DNA from: a phage
NCBI GenBank assembly: GCA_033239445.1
Contig: GCA_033239445.1_3953.1
Strand: one strand, 5' to 3'
Length of the DNA stretch: 64,000 nt
Part shown: piece after piece, positions 1 through 6,621 of the stretch
Layout of the letters: every line of letters starts with the position of its first letter
Position numbering within the stretch: the first letter of the stretch is position 1
Notes under the pieces: generated by a model
Databases searched by the model: none
Seen by the model: the letters and a program-made list of their open reading frames with translations, nothing else
What the model was told of the DNA's origin: nothing
Program-made: the position numbers and the translations under genes

Positions 1-47
1 TTACGGTCTTCAGTTGACTCAAGCGGTCTTTCACTTGACCTCAAAAT

Positions 48-123
48 TGGTGCTCCCACAAGGATTCGAACCCTGATAAGTTGCTTACAAGGCAACCGTA
101 ATAGCCAATTATACGATAAGAGC
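48..123 (-). tRNA. tRNA-Thr (anticodon TGT)
   Basis: Minus-strand cloverleaf read by eye: CCA encoded (tgg 48-50), acceptor gctccca pairs with taagagc (two G:U), T-loop TTCGAAT, anticodon stem gttgc/gcaac with loop CTTGTAA. Confidence 0.8.
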
Positions 124-129
124 ATTGTT

Positions 130-204
130 TGGAGCATCCAGAGGGAATCGAACCCTCAACCTCAGTTTGGAAGACTGTAATTTTCCCGTTTAAACTATGG
201 ATGC
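130..204 (-). tRNA. tRNA-Gly (anticodon TCC)
   Basis: Minus strand; encoded CCA, acceptor gcatcca/tggatgc, T-loop TTCGATT, anticodon loop CTTCCAA, discriminator U. Confidence 0.8.
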
Positions 205-210
205 ACTAAT

Positions 211-286
211 TGGTGGAGAAGCAGGGAATTGAACCCTGTACTTAAGTTTGCAAAACTTACGTTTTAACCATGTAAACTACATCCCC
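211..286 (-). tRNA. tRNA-Ala (anticodon TGC)
   Basis: Minus strand; encoded CCA, T-stem caggg/ccctg, anticodon stem taagt/actta with loop TTTGCAA; acceptor stem carries a G3:U70 pair, the classical Ala identity element. Confidence 0.8.
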
Positions 287-292
287 ATTGTT

Positions 293-368
293 TGGTACAG
301 GTGGAGGGAATTGAACCCATCGTCTTACTGATTAAGAGTCAGCCGCATAACCATTTTGCTACACCTGC
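293..368 (-). tRNA. tRNA-Lys (anticodon CTT)
   Basis: Minus strand; encoded CCA, acceptor acaggtg/cacctgc, anticodon loop CTCTTAA; close paralog of the tRNA at 1747-1822. Confidence 0.7.
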
Positions 369-375
369 ATTAATT

Positions 376-452
376 TGGTACACCTAGAGAGATTCGAACT
401 CACACTGAGCAGATTCTAAGTCTGCTGCCTCTTCCAATTGGGCTATAGGTGC
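376..452 (-). tRNA. tRNA with anticodon TAG (Leu-type anticodon, class I fold with 5-nt variable loop)
   Basis: Minus strand; encoded CCA, U8-A9, D-stem GCC/GGC, anticodon stem GCAGA/TCTGC with loop CTTAGAA, variable region only 5 nt, discriminator A. Confidence 0.6.
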
Positions 453-705
453 ATTAAATCTTTGTAGAGAACTGCTAAGACGCCAAAGCAACAATGGTAT
501 CAAATGCCTTAACAATTCTCTAAAAAGACCTATTGGCCTCTGCATAGTCTTGCTTAATCCGGTGACTAGAACCTTTGGAGAGCTTGATATTATCTCTTCT
601 CCGTGACACCTACTAGGTGCTTTACCAGTGCCGTGTACGCCAATACACGAAGAGGAAACCTGAAACACTTGCTCGAACAGCGAGTCTCAGCTTTAAATCT
701 TATTA

Positions 706-795
706 GGCGGTAGATAAAGGAGTCGAACCCTCACCGTATTTCTACAATGGCAATAGTTTTCAAGACTATTTGGCTTCCATTAGCCGCTACCTACC
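706..795 (-). tRNA. tRNA-Ser (anticodon TGA), class II with long variable arm
   Basis: Minus strand; anticodon stem atagt/actat with loop CTTGAAA, long variable arm, T-loop TTCGACT, acceptor GGTAGGT/ATCTACC with one G:U, CC encoded. Confidence 0.7.
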
Positions 796-808
796 CCTAA
801 TAAGACTT

Positions 809-891
809 TGGCATGGGACGGAGGATTCGAACCCCTTTGAGTAAGTTTTGGAGGCTTACGCACATGCCTTAGTGTCTTAACATCGTCCCAT
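809..891 (-). tRNA. atypical tRNA-like gene, best read as tRNA-Trp (anticodon CCA) with enlarged D region
   Basis: Minus strand; perfect 7-bp acceptor atgggac/gtcccat with encoded CCA, T-loop TTCGAAT, anticodon-like loop CTCCAAA on a 4-bp stem, 5-nt variable loop; D region about 6 nt too long and position 8 is G. Confidence 0.45.
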
Positions 892-1056
892 ACTATATTT
901 CGAAGCTTACCCTGTTATCTCAACACTGTCAAGCTTCTTCTCAGATTATTTACATGTTCTGGAAAACATGAGATACAGACCACCTCCTTATGAGATTGAC
1001 TCTTTCAAGTCAATGCGGAGACCCATAAAGGTCGTCGTAGTAATCTGCTAACTATT

Positions 1057-1177
1057 TGGCAGTCAAGGTAGGAGTCGAACCTACTTACTATCGAAGGGAG
1101 CTACCCTTCAGCAACTTTCCGACTTTCGTTTATCTCTTAACGCGTATCTAAGATAACTTACTCGTGTTGTCTTGACC
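1057..1177 (-). ncRNA. 121-nt tRNA-like RNA (acceptor stem, T-arm and encoded CCA but no anticodon arm)
   Basis: tgg at 1057-1059, acceptor agtcaag pairs with cttgacc at 1171-1177, perfect T-arm gtagg/agtcgaa/cctac; interior holds hairpin gaaggg-agcta-cccttc and palindromic ttatct/agataa but no 5-7-5 anticodon arm. Confidence 0.45.
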
Positions 1178-1185
1178 ATTAAAAT

Positions 1186-1262
1186 TGGCACACCCTACAG
1201 GATTCGAACCTGTAACTGACGGTTTAGAAGACCGTTGCTCTATCCGTTTGAACTAAGGGTGC
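1186..1262 (-). tRNA. tRNA-Arg (anticodon TCT)
   Basis: Minus strand; encoded CCA, acceptor acaccct/agggtgc, T-stem acagg/cctgt, anticodon stem acggt/accgt with loop CTTCTAA. Confidence 0.8.
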
Positions 1263-1510
1263 ATTATCTTTAAAGGCTCTCTTAGAAAACCCTTAAAGAT
1301 GCCCACTTTATTAATCATACCGTGGGCTAGTACGCCAAATTCTTTAACAGGGAGTTGGAATACCCTGCTGGTGTTTAGCCTATTAAGCTACTGCCAGAAA
1401 AACATTATCGTTTGCATTTATTTTTAAGTTTTTAAAATAGACGCTACGCTAACGAAAACTAAGGTTATCTTAAAGTGGTCACATCTGAATGTCAACAACT
1501 TTATGAAATT

Positions 1511-1586
1511 TGGTACTGGTAGGTGGAATCGAACCACCGATATTCCCTTATCAGGGGAGTGTTATAACCTTCTTAACTATACCAGC
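1511..1586 (-). tRNA. tRNA-Ile (anticodon GAT)
   Basis: Minus strand; encoded CCA, acceptor actggta/taccagc, T-stem ggtgg/ccacc, anticodon loop CTGATAA. Confidence 0.8.
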
Positions 1587-1588
1587 AT

Positions 1589-1665
1589 TGGAGGTTCAGG
1601 TGGGAATCGAACCCACATTCATAGGGCTTATGAAACCCTTGCATTACCTTATCTGCGACTGAACC
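1589..1665 (-). tRNA. tRNA with anticodon CAT (elongator Met or Ile2-type)
   Basis: Minus strand; encoded CCA, perfect acceptor ggttcag/ctgaacc, anticodon stem agggc/accct with loop TTCATAA; fully paired 1:72 argues against an initiator. Confidence 0.75.
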
Positions 1666-1746
1666 ATTATAAGTTGCCCCTTTGTAGAGAACTGATTGAG
1701 TGGGTGTTTCCAGCCGCGCATGTGTTCTTCAGTTAAGGGGCGAATT

Positions 1747-1822
1747 TGGTAGAAGTGGAGGGATTCGAACCCGTCGCCTGTCAGATTAAAAGTCTGCCGC
1801 ATCACCATTCTGCTACACTTCC
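1747..1822 (-). tRNA. tRNA-Lys (anticodon TTT)
   Basis: Minus strand; encoded CCA, acceptor agaagtg/cacttcc, anticodon stem tcaga/tctgc with loop CTTTTAA. Confidence 0.75.
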
Positions 1823-2024
1823 ATTAAATCATCTTTGCAGTAACCTACGCAAACCTTGCTAAAGGGTTTGTAGAGTCATCTCTTATAAGCTAATCTAGAA
1901 TCATGCTCAAGAGACTCTTCGGCACTCATGGGACGACTGGTTAGCTCCATAAGTCACTGCAAAGAGGATTACCAGACCGTATTTATCTTAAGTGCTTCCA
2001 TTACACCAACACGCCGTAACGTGT

Positions 2025-2041
2025 GAAGGAATCGAACCTTC
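2025..2041 (-). other. orphan T-arm-like hairpin (gaagg-aatcgaa-ccttc) with no complete tRNA around it
   Basis: Perfect 5-bp stem and TTCGATT-type loop on the minus strand, but no matching acceptor or anticodon arm within 90 nt; flanked by spacer motifs A and B. Confidence 0.3.
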
Positions 2042-2077
2042 GCCTTTTCTTTACCAGAGAAATAGATTGTTTATTGT

Positions 2078-2118
2078 TTGCTGTAAACGGTCTTCTGTAA
2101 AATTGTTGGAACCAGACC
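2078..2118 (-). repeat. tRNA-cluster spacer motif A (TTGCTGTAAACGGTCTTCTGTAAA) followed by motif B (ACCAGACC)
   Basis: Motif A recurs at 2166-2185, 2622-2645 and 2785-2804; motif B recurs at 1971-1978, 2575-2582 and 2735-2742. Confidence 0.6.
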
Positions 2119-2165
2119 AAGTTTTAAATTTTTCAAATTAAATTGGCTTGAAATATTAAAATTGC

Positions 2166-2185
2166 TTGCTGTATTTGGTCTTCTG
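2166..2185 (-). repeat. tRNA-cluster spacer motif A copy
   Basis: ttgctgtatttggtcttctg; same core as the other three copies. Confidence 0.6.
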
Positions 2186-2246
2186 CTCCTTTAAAGAATA
2201 CTCGTAAGAACTCTTTAAGGGAGGGGCTAAAAAGCCCTCTCAAATT

Positions 2247-2323
2247 TGGCGGTTACGAAGGGATTCGAACCCTCATCATCCTCCGTGACAGGGAGGTATT
2301 TTGACCAGTTAAACTACATAACC
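2247..2323 (-). tRNA. tRNA-Asp (anticodon GTC)
   Basis: Minus strand; encoded CCA, acceptor ggttacg/cataacc, anticodon stem cctcc/ggagg with loop CTGTCAC. Confidence 0.8.
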
Positions 2324-2329
2324 TTTATT

Positions 2330-2417
2330 TGGTGCGCCGTGAAGGAGTCGAACCTCCCGAGTCATAATGACAAGTGATTTACAGTCACCACCGCTTCCAT
2401 CTACGGGATAACGACGC
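2330..2417 (-). tRNA. tRNA-Tyr (anticodon GTA), class II
   Basis: Minus strand; 88 nt with long variable arm, encoded CCA, acceptor gcgccgt/acgacgc, anticodon loop CTGTAAA. Confidence 0.75.
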
Positions 2418-2486
2418 ATTTTATTCTATTCAGGCTAAGGACTTGCACCTTACAAATCGGTGAGCAATCGCTTCTCTCCCAAATCT

Positions 2487-2563
2487 TGGCGGTTAGTCAG
2501 GGATTCGAACCCTGTACCATTCGGTTAACAGCCGACCGCACATGCCTTATGTGCTTCCTAACC
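2487..2563 (-). tRNA. tRNA-Asn (anticodon GTT)
   Basis: Minus strand; encoded CCA, perfect T-stem caggg/ccctg, anticodon stem tcgg/ccga with loop CTGTTAA. Confidence 0.75.
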
Positions 2564-2574
2564 ATGTTAGTATT

Positions 2575-2645
2575 ACCAGACCGTATCTTTTCATTTTTTG
2601 CCTATAAAAAATTTTAAGTGTTTGCTGTAAACGGCCTTCTGTAAA
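2575..2645 (-). repeat. spacer motif B (2575-2582) plus motif A (2622-2645) between tRNA-Asn and the CAT-anticodon tRNA
   Basis: On the minus strand motif B reads TGgTAATAC, an extended -10-like element ending about 6 nt before the tRNA-Asn 5-prime end. Confidence 0.5.
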
Positions 2646-2647
2646 TT

Positions 2648-2724
2648 TGGAGGCGGGTGTAGGAGTCGAACCTACCGATAACATGCTAATGAGACATGTG
2701 AGACACCCTTTCTCTATACCCGCA
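2648..2724 (-). tRNA. second tRNA with anticodon CAT, atypical
   Basis: Minus strand; encoded CCA, perfect T-arm gtagg/cctac, D-stem GAGA/TCTC, anticodon loop CTCATTA (pyrimidine at 37), apparent U1:C72 mismatch. Confidence 0.5.
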
Positions 2725-2734
2725 ATTCTTAATG

Positions 2735-2804
2735 ACCAGACCAAATCTTTTTTGGATTTCTATGCGCGAAATTGAAAAGTTTGTTTGCTGTAATTGGTCT
2801 TCTG
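2735..2804 (-). repeat. spacer motif B (2735-2742) plus motif A (2785-2804) between the CAT tRNA and tRNA-Glu
   Basis: Same A and B cores as the other copies. Confidence 0.5.
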
Positions 2805-2811
2805 TCAAAAC

Positions 2812-2889
2812 TGGCATTCCCGAAGGGACTTGAACCCTCAAACCACACCTTGAAAGGGTGTTGACTTTACCTAATTTGTCTACGGGAAT
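2812..2889 (-). tRNA. tRNA-Glu (anticodon TTC)
   Basis: Minus strand; encoded CCA, perfect acceptor attcccg/cgggaat, anticodon stem acacc/ggtgt with loop CTTTCAA. Confidence 0.8.
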
Positions 2890-2895
2890 ATAATT

Positions 2896-2975
2896 TGGTC
2901 TCCGTTGAAGGATTTGAACCTTCGACCCCTTGCTCCCAAAGCAAGTGCTGCTAAACCAAACTGAGCTAAACGGAG
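2896..2975 (-). tRNA. tRNA-Pro (anticodon TGG)
   Basis: Minus strand; encoded CCA, perfect acceptor ctccgtt/aacggag, anticodon stem cttgc/gcaag with loop TTTGGGA. Confidence 0.75.
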
Positions 2976-3098
2976 ATAATCTTTTTAACAACCTATGTAA
3001 CAACTATAACACTATTTTTTAGTGTCTGTCAAGAGGTTTTTTAAAATAATTTGATTTATTTCAGAAAACTTCTTTTTCGTTTCTATGTAGAACATATT

Positions 3099-3130
3099 AA
3101 AGGGTATTAAACACTTTGTCAATACCCTTT
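3099..3130. terminator. hairpin just downstream of the Ro60-like gene, possible bidirectional terminator
   Basis: Perfect 9-bp inverted repeat aagggtatt / aataccctt with 12-nt loop, T-rich flank on the plus side. Confidence 0.35.
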
Positions 3131-3140
3131 TTAAAACTTT

Positions 3141-4556
3141 TTACCAATCGTAGCGTTCAACCATTACTGCTTTGAGCATTACGCTGATAGGGTCAAACTT
3201 CTCACCACCAAGCAAAGCTTTTAAAGTGGCTGGAGAGAAACCAGATACCATCGCTACACCGTTATCCTTTACAGACACTTCGCAAGTACCGTTACGGTTT
3301 GCTAAGTACCAGAATACCAGTTGTGGCATCTCATATCCAGCTTTCTTGTACTTTTCTTGAATTGCTTCAAAGTTAGTACGACCATCTGCTCCATCAACCT
3401 GATTAAACTGCATATCAGAGAAGATGATAAGCTTACTAGGCATCTCTTTCTGAGTCAAGTTGTTTTTAACACCAATCTCAAGGATTCTTGCAAAAGCAGC
3501 TTGTAGGTCAGTTGAACCATACTCTACATGACTCTTCACTTGACGTAAGCGAGTCTGTAAATCACCACTCAATGTGATGAAGTGAGGTCTGCTAGAGTAA
3601 ACCATCAATTCATCTTTAAAGCAACCTGTATTACGTTCTGAAACGTACAGGGCTAAAGATACACCAATGTCTAGCGCTGTAACAGAACCATGTCGCTCCC
3701 AAGTCATAGATGAAGATACATCTGCCATGCACAGAATGTTCTCACCCTCTTTCATCCAGTTTGGTAAAGCTTTCCACTGCTCATTTGCAACGGTTGCATT
3801 ACCATAACCGACTGACTTTGTAATGTCATAAGGGTAGACTGCACCAGCATTAATCTTAGTCTCACCTTTAGTCAGTGCTGCAATGTATGCTGCATAACGC
3901 TCACCATCTTTACGACTGAAGAGTTTTTGATAACGTGCAGCAGCCAGTGAAGGAAGCTTGCTGTAATCAATCTCTCCGAACTCATTTGCTGAAATCTTTT
4001 GTTCAACAGTATCAGATAGTGCTGACAGAAGAACTCGATACTGCTTCTCTGAAAGATTTGCAAACTTACAGAAACGACGAACAAAACGCATGTGTCGTGA
4101 TTTTACTCGTGGTAACCATTTTGCTGCCAGAGCCGATGTTGCAGGGTCTAATAGTGCCGATTCTAAATGCTTGAAAGCATCTGTTTCGTAACGTGTACCA
4201 ACAAAGATTTTGAAGTCATCATAACGACCTAAATCAGAAATCTTGTCCATGATACGTAATACTTGAAACTCATCAAGAATCCCATCAGAGATTGCTTTAG
4301 TAAGAGTATAACGGAATGCTTTACGCTCACCCATACCTTCTCGTGCATCTCGCATATGTAACAGGATTCGAACTGCTACATCAATATCTTCTCGCATTGC
4401 CTTGTAAAACAAGTTTGGAAGAACTTCTACGTTTGTTCTGCTTGAACCAGCAGCTTTGTAGAAATCTACCAGTGCAGACATTGAAGAGGTGTGGTTAACA
4501 GCACCGTTTTCAGTTAAACCTGCATGTAAATGCGAGTGCTTAAATAATTCGCTCAT
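3141..4556 (-). CDS. rsr: Ro60/TROVE-family RNA-binding protein (Rsr-like) with C-terminal vWA domain
   Basis: 471 aa; MIDAS motif LCMADVSSSM, plus GSTDLQ and KLIIFSDMQF blocks, and upstream EGMGERKAFRYTLTKAI and YPYDITKSVGY, all matching remembered Ro60 landmarks (DVSxSM, GGTD, FTDNETF, HPFHIL). Confidence 0.7.
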   Translation of the reverse strand: MSELFKHSHLHAGLTENGAVNHTSSMSALVDFYKAAGSSRTNVEVLPNLFYKAMREDIDVAVRILLHMRDAREGMGERKAFRYTLTKAISDGILDEFQVLRIMDKISDLGRYDDFKIFVGTRYETDAFKHLESALLDPATSALAAKWLPRVKSRHMRFVRRFCKFANLSEKQYRVLLSALSDTVEQKISANEFGEIDYSKLPSLAAARYQKLFSRKDGERYAAYIAALTKGETKINAGAVYPYDITKSVGYGNATVANEQWKALPNWMKEGENILCMADVSSSMTWERHGSVTALDIGVSLALYVSERNTGCFKDELMVYSSRPHFITLSGDLQTRLRQVKSHVEYGSTDLQAAFARILEIGVKNNLTQKEMPSKLIIFSDMQFNQVDGADGRTNFEAIQEKYKKAGYEMPQLVFWYLANRNGTCEVSVKDNGVAMVSGFSPATLKALLGGEKFDPISVMLKAVMVERYDW

Positions 4557-4632
4557 ATTAATTCTCTCTCGTTAGAATGTTTTGGTGAGACAGACTCTAA
4601 CGTTTGATTTAGAACCTGTCAACACCTTTTTA

Positions 4633-5001
4633 TTATTTTTTCAGAGTTGCTACAGCAGAGAACGTTGGTTTGTTCTCCTGTGCTCCCTGATTCCCATTAT
4701 CTGTAGTCTTTTTGTCTACAGCGATGGCTTTCATCTCACCTGCTGAGTGAGTCATGATAACTTTACCAGCTTCCATCATTGACTTGACTTGGATATCTTT
4801 TTGAGTCAAACCAAATTCAGCAAGCTTTACAGGGTCTCTTGTAACAATGGCCTCAAACAGCTTTGCAGCATACTCTGCTGAGTTATCAATAGTCAACTGT
4901 GCCTTGACCAGTGAACTCTTGTTACGTGAGCCTTTGGGTCTACCTGATGGGTTACCAGATTGACCTTTCTTGAATTGGCCTTTGTTTGTTCGTTTCGTCA
5001 T
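4633..5001 (-). CDS. hypothetical basic protein with GNPSGRPKGSRNK motif
   Basis: 122 aa ORF; motif resembles the GNPxGRPKG signature seen in a family of small phage proteins. Confidence 0.5.
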   Translation of the reverse strand: MTKRTNKGQFKKGQSGNPSGRPKGSRNKSSLVKAQLTIDNSAEYAAKLFEAIVTRDPVKLAEFGLTQKDIQVKSMMEAGKVIMTHSAGEMKAIAVDKKTTDNGNQGAQENKPTFSAVATLKK

Positions 5002-5391
5002 TCTTCACCTCTTTTAAGAACTCTTAAAAGGCTTTTAAGATAAGAGATAGATATCCAGAAAGATATCTGTTTAAATAGCCTTTTTAGAAGAGTCTTTTAA
5101 GTAATCTTCTAAGTATTTATTAGGCTACACGTTGTCAAGAGGAATGTCAAGTAAATTTTTTAGTTGCAATACTTCTTGACTTGTTGTATGGATTACTGTA
5201 CCATCTTACTAAAGCTGTAGGTCTGCCTTTATCTACAAAGGAGACTTAATGAGAAACAATTCAAAATTGAAGACAGGTAATAATACCAATCACTGTAAGG
5301 AATCAAAGCGGGTAGAATTACTCTATTACAAATCCTCTGAAATTGGTTTGTACCTATACTTTCAAAATTATAGACGACAAGAGGATTATTT

Positions 5392-5625
5392 ATGTGTAGC
5401 TCCCAACTAGAAATCACAGATATTATTGATTTATACCAAACTGCAAAGAGTCATGGGTATATCACTTCAATTGGAAAGAATAAGCACTATGATGCACTAA
5501 CTGGTATGTATTTCAGAGCAATAGCTCAATCTAGTGAACAGGTTCTAATGGTTTCTTCCAGTGAATTTGCTTCATTTCTCTATTGCAGCAAGATTATCAA
5601 TCGTAGGAGAACTGATAAATGTTAA
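5392..5625 (+). CDS. hypothetical protein
   Basis: 77 aa ORF with SD aagagg upstream; first gene of the plus-strand block. Confidence 0.4.
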   Translation: MCSSQLEITDIIDLYQTAKSHGYITSIGKNKHYDALTGMYFRAIAQSSEQVLMVSSSEFASFLYCSKIINRRRTDKC

Positions 5626-6252: not shown

Positions 6253-6621
6253 ATGAAGGCAAAGAGTGGAAAAGACTTTTATTGCTTCCTACAATCTTAT
6301 GTCCAAAGTGTTCAAGAAGGTGACAGGTATAATCTTGATGATGTACTTCCGACACCCTTAACATGGCGTGATAGCAAATGGCCTGAGAAGGATATCAACC
6401 CTACCGAAACATATTCCGAATACACACCTAAAATTCCTCTACCAGATACTGAAGAACTTCTTTACCCAATGTTTCATATCGTTGGTCTTGGTACATTTTT
6501 GATGGATATTCAATATGTGATGGGTAAAGGCTATAAGATTGACGGAGTTGTTGTAGGTGATGTTTCACCGCAGCACAAAGGTTATTTTAGACTAAATGCA
6601 AGATTAGAGGCTAAGAAATGA
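6253..6621 (+). CDS. hypothetical protein, paralog of the N-terminal domain of the next gene
   Basis: 122 aa; shares W-P-E-x-D-I, Y-T-P, EELLY and MD(I/L)QY blocks with residues 1-120 of 6618-7502. Confidence 0.55.
   Translation: MKAKSGKDFYCFLQSYVQSVQEGDRYNLDDVLPTPLTWRDSKWPEKDINPTETYSEYTPKIPLPDTEELLYPMFHIVGLGTFLMDIQYVMGKGYKIDGVVVGDVSPQHKGYFRLNARLEAKK

Follow-up and report, generated by a model that had tools for sequence, protein, structure and literature searches.

A phage protein with a predicted Ro60 fold and four candidate partner RNAs encoded between tRNA genes

Could a phage protein resembling Ro60 work with small RNAs as Ro60 does with Y RNAs, and could such RNAs be encoded among the tRNA genes adjoining its own gene? 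The question is raised by a 64,000-nt stretch of phage DNA (NCBI GenBank assembly GCA_033239445.1, contig GCA_033239445.1_3953.1; hereafter the window), in which the gene of a 471-aa protein (3141..4556, minus strand, ATG start) lies directly beside a tRNA cluster. A sequence-only reading of this DNA had proposed that the protein belongs to the Ro60/TROVE family and that three tRNA-like elements nearby (809-891, 1057-1177 and 2025-2041) are its candidate partner RNAs. Its starting observations are sound. The open reading frame (ORF) is real, its translation including CMADVSSSMTWE and the DVSSSM motif of an adhesion site dependent on metal ions (MIDAS) in a vWA domain, and 16 tRNA genes are found in the window at 48..2975 (ARAGORN, Rfam and the annotation of Shigella phage Sf19), directly 3' of the gene and on the same strand, in a cluster that extends past the window start. 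The identity of the protein family and of the candidate RNAs had to be revised, as described below.

Pfam assigns the protein to DUF2828/DUF7788 (PF11443, PF25043), with E 6e-44 and 150.4 bits for DUF7788 (residues 275-455; cut-off 27.1) and E 5e-27 and 95.2 bits for DUF2828 (cut-off 29). Besides these, a Pfam scan at E<=1 returned a weak Tachylectin match and no match to TROVE (PF05731), so that the proposed TROVE membership has to be dropped; the idea of a Ro60-like system survives on structural and comparative evidence. In PHROGs the protein matches phrog_850, 'RNA-binding protein', over its full length (E 3e-178), while NCBIfam and a single-sequence search of PDB sequences gave nothing relevant. 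A profile built from 56 homologues (41-95% identity) reached only insignificant E values of 0.4-1.4 against PDB sequences, four of the five weak matches being Ro60/TROVE chains aligned at the MIDAS region. The complete MIDAS set (D279, S281, S283, T349 and D381) is invariant in these homologues, its DxSxS motif (D279-V-S281-S-S283, from the translation and the homologue alignment) being encoded at 3708..3722 on the minus strand, within the C-terminal vWA domain.

The structure predicted by AlphaFold2 from the alignment was confident (pLDDT 89.5, pTM 0.89) and displays a helical-repeat ring closed by the C-terminal vWA domain, which is the Ro60 fold. When it was compared with the PDB by Foldseek, the top eight matches were all full-length Ro60/TROVE structures (E 1e-7 to 3e-6; TM-scores normalised to the query 0.41-0.66; 514-573 columns aligned), including Xenopus and human Ro60, Deinococcus Rsr and the Ro60 of Thermus phage phiLo, followed by generic vWA domains at E>=1e-3 and a TM-score of about 0.22. 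The blocks resembling Ro60 that had been noticed earlier are thus insignificant at the sequence level, whereas the resemblance is recovered in the predicted fold, and it is the entire ring that is conserved, beyond the vWA domain alone. Given these Foldseek matches and the assignment to DUF2828/DUF7788 without TROVE, the modelled protein has the whole Ro60 architecture and yet belongs to a separate, very large sequence family, which counts 8,914 representatives of 50%-identity clusters at E<=0.001 and has members in 710 GenBank phage records. Those of mycobacteriophages carry the annotation 'Ro-like RNA binding protein', and among the best 120-150 protein matches listed all are phage-like. The DUF2828 branch occurs in eukaryotes too. 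DUF2828 is mentioned in papers on plants, and its homologues are called 'mimiviral-like' in one paper.

Reading of the minus strand brought out a repeated element in the tRNA spacers. Four non-tRNA elements, A to D, are interspersed between the tRNAs on the strand of the gene, 330-1,170 nt downstream of it, and the pattern AGAMSRCCNNWTACAGCAARCA occurs in four copies in the window, all on the gene strand, for 0.14 expected by chance. Elements A, B and C are short RNAs similar to the Class I RNAs of Dictyostelium considered further on. Element A (2729..2809, core 2737-2799, minus strand) fills the spacer between tRNA-Glu and tRNA-Met, B (2569..2646, core 2577-2636, minus strand) fills that between tRNA-Met and tRNA-Asn, and C (2105..2190, core 2113-2180, minus strand) lies in the tRNA-Asp/tRNA-Lys interval, directly followed by D (1965..2102, minus strand), a long form in which the shared terminal module surrounds a permuted tRNA-like domain. 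Two covariance models were used, R1, made from Ounavirinae copies of D only, and a second model, R2, which scored 42.3 bits on A (E 5e-5), 46.3 on B (E 7e-6), 32.1 on C (E 0.006) and 122.6 on D. The three short elements, all missed by the sequence-only reading, were also found by a rule-based scan presented below.

The module common to A-D consists of a terminal helix whose first pair is an invariant G:C, a single-stranded UUACAGCAA that comes after the 5' strand of this helix, and a 3' CUG; in the window the motif copies read (G/A)(U/A)UUACAGCAA or AAAUACAGCAA. A 7-bp terminal helix (AGACCNN with NNGGUCU) is present in all four predicted folds, and in A, B and D an outer 3-bp helix together with an AGA/G internal loop gives it a bulged form, which is that of the minimum-free-energy fold of A. 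The interior is a small AU-rich hairpin in A-C and a series of four hairpins in D. In the latter, the invariant G 2092 pairs with C 1975, CAGCAA lies at 2078-2083, and the interior comprises, all on the minus strand, an anticodon-like hairpin (2046-2062; 5 bp and a 7-nt loop), a T arm (2025-2041; GAAGG-UUCGAUU-CCUUC), a closed acceptor-like hairpin whose helix is capped by a loop (2009-2024) and a D-arm-like hairpin with a GG dinucleotide inside (1991-2007). The order T arm, closed acceptor hairpin, D arm is found in both the minimum-free-energy and the consensus folds. One of the three tRNA-like elements proposed earlier, 2025-2041, hence turns out to be the T arm of D, the two others falling outside this family. 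That D could be an ordinary degenerate tRNA was considered and rejected, as its acceptor stem is unpaired and the closed hairpin covaries instead; the Rfam tRNA model gives it 28.8 bits (gathering score 29) and flags non-standard pairs in the acceptor stem. Candidate partner RNAs do lie in the adjacent tRNA cluster, as had been expected, but they are four elements, one of them with a permuted domain of the YrlA type, and not canonical Y RNAs: covariance-model searches with Rfam Y_RNA and YrlA returned no match at the gathering threshold on the window and none at E<=10 in 1-5400 or 1950-2200, the YrlA model being confirmed as part of the Rfam library used.

These elements are conserved throughout the Ounavirinae, where every locus reaching into the tRNA cluster contains them, with four copies in most and three in three loci according to a strict pattern; a covariance-model search of three full tRNA clusters retrieved exactly the four elements per genome. 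Their ends, CAGAAGRCC and GGTCTGG, are invariant and their interiors have strongly diverged. D's acceptor-like hairpin takes the form ACACG/CGUGU, ACUCG/CGAGU or, in one locus (L006), CCCUUC/GAAGGG, and three of its pairs show compensatory changes.

The analysis was extended to comparison loci with members of the protein family, 80 from IMG/VR and 13 from GenBank. At the gathering threshold, Rfam detected nothing but tRNAs in 13 other loci, and R1 retrieved full-length matches in unrelated loci. In Klebsiella phage KP2025 two tandem copies lie downstream of the gene, at distances of 266 and 405 nt, several copies precede the gene in L022, a locus with five elements in all and no tRNA within 5 kb, and copies directly flank the gene in L052, L075, L044 and mycobacteriophages. 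With R2, 49 matches were obtained at E<0.1, all on the gene strand. The same model also strongly matched the non-coding gaps that precede the gene in Enterococcus phage iF6 (E 3.5e-12 and 1.3e-10) and in Bacillus phage PJN02; matches were weaker in Listeria and Staphylococcus phages and none was found with this model in the Campylobacter phage. Taken together, the covariance models find the RNA in full length near DUF2828 genes of Klebsiella, Aeromonas, Mycobacterium, Enterococcus, Bacillus and Listeria phages and of many uncultured viral contigs, and the module stands beside such genes in phages of Proteobacteria, Actinobacteria and Firmicutes.

In an alignment of 32 matches, 90.5% of the cells are paired, compared with 39-47% when the partners are slid, 34 of the 36 modelled pairs show compensatory change, and the covariation score amounts to 0.455 against <=0.081 in the slid controls; the alignment was fitted to the model, which favours structure, but the slid controls were drawn from this alignment as well. 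The T-arm and acceptor helices are paired in 96% of the cells over 31 sequences. The terminal stem is paired in 93.9%, its closing pair being G:C in 26 of 28 sequences while its other pairs covary freely. According to the aligned matches, the signature of the family is composed of an A-rich lead (AAG), a terminal helix of 6-7 bp, a linker of 1-4 nt, a near-invariant CAGCAA, a variable body that is either short or a tRNA mimic, and the 3' strand of the helix followed by CUG or UUG, the 3' tail of the elements being CUG plus G, U or A. Many copies include a complete tRNA-like domain, and they are found upstream or downstream of the gene, with up to eight in tandem.

A rule independent of any model (G and 5 nt of stem, a linker of 1-4 nt, CAGCAA, 12-150 nt, a complementary 6-mer ending in C, then TG) retrieved A-D exactly and nothing else in the 64-kb window. 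Over 87 loci, of which 53 were positive, it gave 131 matches on the gene strand against a single one on the opposite strand and 0-1 in shuffled sequences. Among the 69 loci from outside the Ounavirinae, 47 of 62 rule matches lie <=700 nt from the gene, where 15.5% would be expected, and 31 loci have such a match. The RNAs are therefore tightly linked to the protein family, in a strand-specific manner and across many unrelated phages. The adjacency to tRNAs was rejected as the defining context, since a tRNA or transfer-messenger RNA (tmRNA) occurs within 5 kb in only 19 of 56 non-Ounavirinae loci; the element lying much closer to the gene than this, the conserved neighbour of the gene is the RNA element and not the tRNA cluster. 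This large pairing of the DUF2828 family with a covarying small RNA, which has no family in Rfam release 15, is apparently undescribed. Two uncultured viral contigs present a tmRNA gene within 5 kb of the DUF2828 gene (L073 1968-2372; L076 8710-9199, the latter with 87 bits for Rfam tmRNA). Two other loci, L059 and L085, belong to the same 380-kb IMG/VR contig and hold DUF2828 paralogues about 230 kb apart, L059 having a long-form element directly downstream of its gene (6462-6594).

How does this system compare with the known Ro60 ribonucleoproteins? YrlA-type RNAs were reported beside Ro60 genes in >250 bacteria and phages, mycobacteriophages among them (Chen et al. 2014, PMC4201824). The phage system shares with bacterial Ro60 (Rsr) and YrlA a Ro60-fold ring protein that bears a MIDAS motif, RNA genes placed beside the protein gene on the same strand and often in several copies, and the coexistence of long and short forms, as for YrlA and YrlB. 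Moreover, element D keeps the permuted order of YrlA, with T arm, closed acceptor stem and D arm inside a 5'/3' stem, and in mycobacteriophages the Rfam YrlA model (RF02553) matches, with 36-38 bits (E 3e-5 and 8e-5; gathering score 69), the tRNA-like part of an element 130 nt downstream of a 'Ro-like' DUF2828 gene. Unlike the bacterial protein, however, that of the phage belongs to DUF2828/DUF7788, without a TROVE profile match. The putative binding module also differs, being a G:C-closed helix of 6-7 bp with UUACAGCAA instead of the GNCGAAN0-1G in a bulged stem of YrlA, and D has an additional anticodon-like hairpin and sits, as do A-C, inside a tRNA array. The conserved CGAA/GGUCCGA Ro60-binding motif was not found in the linked RNAs, which have a bulged terminal helix with CAGCAA in its place; their 5' strand reads ACAGAAGACC then UUACAGCAA, which resembles GNCGAAN0-1G only loosely (AGAAG vs CGAAG). 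A TROVE-type phage Ro60 is known from phiLo; its structure (PDB 9l5y, 9kop) was determined with adjacently encoded CGAA-type Y-like RNAs, Yrl1 and Yrl2, bound to it, and it slows RNA decay in a complex with the host PNPase (2025; PMC12135203). This system differs by its TROVE-domain protein and by CGAA-motif RNAs devoid of a tRNA-like domain and of CAGCAA; RNA binding and the PNPase complex are experimental there, and the phage DUF2828 system is known here from sequence and models. In two phages the DUF2828 gene has an RNA ligase gene in its vicinity: in Listeria phage cka15 that of an RtcB-type 'tRNA splicing ligase', 1.3 kb downstream (L089 5804-7015), and in Aeromonas phage LAh_8 that of an RNA ligase 2 (Rnl2), a few kb downstream (L005 10072-10995), an anecdotal echo of the bacterial rsr-yrlBA-rtcBA repair operon.

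A close precedent comes from the Felixounavirus Bas63, for which the PhageMaP preprint (2024; PMC11482910) describes gene 130 as structurally very similar to Ro60 and as located directly upstream of tRNA genes, speculates that some of these 'tRNA genes' are Y RNAs, and finds the gene to be needed against the Ppl defence, with a small-plaque phenotype complemented by the gene alone. The gene of the window, which likewise has a Ro60-like predicted structure and directly precedes tRNA genes, is apparently the counterpart of Bas63 gp130, judging from the description given in that paper. The Ro60/Y-RNA idea for a Bas63-type locus has therefore been published before as a speculation, and a phenotype is already on record for the protein. 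The RNAs were not identified in Bas63, whereas the candidates proposed here are spacer elements with a module of their own and not annotated tRNAs; A-D themselves appear to be undescribed before. The published speculation on Y RNAs among tRNAs is thereby replaced by four candidates with exact coordinates and a defined recognition module, and the share of the RNA in the anti-Ppl activity is therefore directly testable.

An unexpected resemblance was found with eukaryotic RNAs. Dicty_Class_I_RNA (RF01414) is the top non-tRNA Rfam family on the phage elements, with 17.6-22.2 bits on A, B and D (21.3 on A and 22.2 on B). Four Class I-interacting proteins are reportedly listed in work by Avesson and colleagues dating from 2011. 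Class I RNAs are about 60 nt long and start with AAG, the remainder being variable; their 6-bp terminal stem varies in sequence with compensatory changes, its invariant 5' G pairing with the C of a 3' CUGU, and the motif CCUUACAGCAA, in which U3, C6, C9, A10 and A11 are nearly invariant, stands beside the 5' stem strand (Kjellin et al. 2021, PMC7919456). Point for point, the short phage elements agree with this published definition (AAG, G:C-closed stem, motif after the 5' strand, CUG), and one copy from an Aeromonas phage (L005 4843-4897) carries the exact 11-mer CCUUACAGCAA. Of the eight short elements arrayed in tandem upstream of the LAh_8 gene, five scored 21-29.6 bits with the Class I model, with full-length alignments and a best E of 0.0044 that refers to a 1.6-kb region chosen beforehand; this model also matches L045, and none of the phage elements reached its gathering score of 41.5. 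The phage RNAs differ from those of Dictyostelium in being bacterial-type genes without DUSE promoter, located behind sigma-70-like promoters, in tRNA operons or beside the DUF2828 gene, and in having for some of them a tRNA-like insert, whereas Class I genes are dispersed, multi-copy and restricted to Dictyostelia, outside of which no Class I RNA was found (PMC7919456). No link of Class I RNAs to Ro60, Y RNA, TROVE or DUF2828 was found in the literature searched. We advance only tentatively, and as rather more doubtful than probable, that the phage and dictyostelid RNAs could form one family, the cognate small RNA of the DUF2828 Ro60-like branch. If true, Class I RNAs would be the 'Y RNAs' of a second Ro-like lineage spanning viruses and eukaryotes, and the phage system with its anti-Ppl phenotype would offer a tractable model for their function, a question that dates from 2004 and for which this is a first lead outside Dictyostelia.

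The explanation that we favour, with a probability of roughly two in three, is that of a Ro60-like ribonucleoprotein in which a divergent ring protein works with the RNAs A-D. Two sigma-70-like promoters on the minus strand, at 3122-3094 and 3032-3003 (10/12 and 11/12 in a consensus scan; pattern matches only), lie between the stop codon of the gene and the first tRNA, tRNA-Pro; their sequences are kept in UAB_Phi87, and they probably drive the tRNA/small-RNA cluster. A-D would then be co-transcribed with the tRNAs from 3122 and 3032 and could be freed by tRNA 5' and 3' processing, a route suggested by the fact that A and B fill whole inter-tRNA spacers. The ring protein would recognise AAG, the 6-7 bp helix opening with G:C, the single-stranded UUACAGCAA and the 3' CUG, and the variable bodies of the RNAs may gate the ring or tether it to other factors, as Y RNAs do for Ro60, the variable part of D being a putative tRNA mimic whose acceptor stem is closed as it is in YrlA. 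Aimed at host RNA enzymes or at a defence nuclease, such tethering or gating would account for the anti-Ppl role. Since Bas63 gene 130 is needed to overcome Ppl, the ribonucleoprotein would most likely be an RNA-based device of counter-defence or of RNA surveillance.

Several points weigh against this explanation. We infer the interaction between RNA and protein from genetic linkage only, TROVE is missing from the Pfam matches of the protein, and the binding mode is not simply transferable from Ro60 because the RNAs have no CGAA. The Ppl phenotype is ascribed in the preprint to the protein alone (PMC11482910). Rule and covariance models together make about 39 of the 69 non-Ounavirinae loci positive, leaving a large minority without an element, and neither R2 nor the rule found one in the KVP40-like Vibrio loci L021 and L023. 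The z-scores of minimum free energy of the single window elements, from -1.6 to +0.2, are unimpressive, the interior fold of C being no better than that of shuffled sequence (z +0.19), and the structural support for A-D is from covariation, not from folding energy. Finally, the sole proven direct binder of Class I RNAs in Dictyostelium is the RRM protein Rnp1A, which is not Ro-like.

Three other readings were weighed, each of which is less consistent with the comparative data. Since MIDAS domains usually mediate protein-protein contacts, the protein might act alone through its vWA/MIDAS domain, for example as a direct inhibitor of Ppl, and the elements might be processing signals, spacers or remnants of tRNA duplication. 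The exact position of the elements in inter-tRNA spacers and the complementation of the Bas63 phenotype by the gene alone (PMC11482910) speak for it. We nevertheless hold it to be unlikely, as elements also flank the gene where no tRNA exists within 5 kb, as in L022, and cluster <=700 nt from it in 31 of 69 diverse loci, while the covariation of the helices and the invariant motif point to a selected RNA structure and the whole ring fold is conserved, not the vWA domain alone. Quite improbable in our view is that the elements are cis-acting parts of messenger or precursor RNAs, such as autoregulatory operator sites or leader or terminator structures. Copies do lie upstream of the gene in many loci, and in several phages the last one adjoins its ribosome-binding site, an element of L005 (4897-4966) ending in CUGAAAGGAG, 6 nt before the ATG; but copies occur either upstream or downstream, up to eight in tandem and many with a complete tRNA-like domain, and in Ounavirinae promoters and tRNAs separate them from the gene, an arrangement typical of processed stable RNAs such as Y RNAs.

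A canonical Ro60/TROVE orthologue with canonical Y RNA or YrlA partners, as in Salmonella rsr-yrlBA or phiLo and with 809-891 and 1057-1177 among the partners, would agree with the Ro60 fold, the YrlA domain order of D and the weak Rfam YrlA matches in mycobacteriophages. It appears very unlikely in view of the absence of TROVE from the Pfam matches and of Y_RNA and YrlA from 1-5400 at E<=10, of a conserved 5' motif that is CAGCAA and not GNCGAAN0-1G/CGAA, and of the fact that 809-891 and 1057-1177 are without the shared module and unmatched by R1 or R2. The Ro60-like ribonucleoprotein with RNAs A-D would carry the principle of Ro60 and Y RNA over to a second lineage of proteins that uses another RNA code, in phages of at least three bacterial phyla. 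A further suggestion is that regulatory RNAs other than tRNAs are also produced in phage tRNA clusters and take advantage of tRNA processing.

As to the setting of the locus, the 471-aa protein shares 100% identity with gp23 of Shigella phage Sf19 (Mooglevirus, Ounavirinae) and 84-86% with that of Felixounavirus. A sigma-70-like promoter (TTGACA-17-TAGAGT; 4594..4622, minus strand; 10/12 in the consensus scan, a pattern match only) is located upstream of its gene, and just upstream of the latter, a 122-aa ORF (4633-5001, minus strand) encodes a DUF5681 protein (E 2e-12), with an equal-sized coding sequence (CDS) at the same position in Sf19, Si3 and UAB_Phi87. The window differs from Sf19 by indels, among them a 405-nt 'predicted endonuclease' gene in the tRNA-Arg/tRNA-Ser interval of Sf19 (L001 9762-10166), which is not in the window, where the counterpart region is at about 795-1186. 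A 'putative endonuclease' CDS likewise occurs within the short-element array of LAh_8 (L005 3533-4132), and homing endonucleases seem to target these RNA clusters.

The tRNA cluster of the window contains other structured pieces, all on the minus strand. The element at 809-891, a conserved tRNA-like RNA, escapes ARAGORN even when its thresholds are relaxed; it combines a 7-bp acceptor stem, a T arm, an encoded CCA-like end and an anticodon-like arm with a 9-nt loop CCUCCAAAA (anti-Shine-Dalgarno-like), whose 5-bp stem covaries in Ounavirinae (GUAAG/CUUAC, AACGG/CCGUU, GACGG/CCGUU), and it has no CAGCAA module. That at 1057-1177 is a 121-nt tRNA-like insertion after tRNA-Arg (GGUCAAG...CUUGACUGCCA), present in the Mooglevirus of the window and absent at the same spot in Felixounavirus UAB_Phi87; its part 1057-1135 is called as a weak tRNA-Ala(agc) by relaxed ARAGORN only. 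Between element D, which it directly follows, and tRNA-Lys lies a structured RNA of about 150 nt (1823-1972) that matches no Rfam family; it has a long closing helix with compensatory changes in six pairs among six Ounavirinae sequences and a conserved UUCUAGAUU centre. About 250 nt between tRNA-Ser and tRNA-Leu (453-705), also without Rfam family, are non-coding and have a counterpart in UAB_Phi87 recognised by eye, the 94-aa ORF listed there being probably spurious. Lastly, the spacer at 1263-1510 contains an internal sigma-70-like promoter (1495-1467; consensus scan, a pattern match only), and weak Rfam matches in this region to alpha_tmRNA (1329-1466, E 0.004) and tmRNA_permuted (1383-1569, E 0.003) suggest that it is another degenerate tRNA-like piece.

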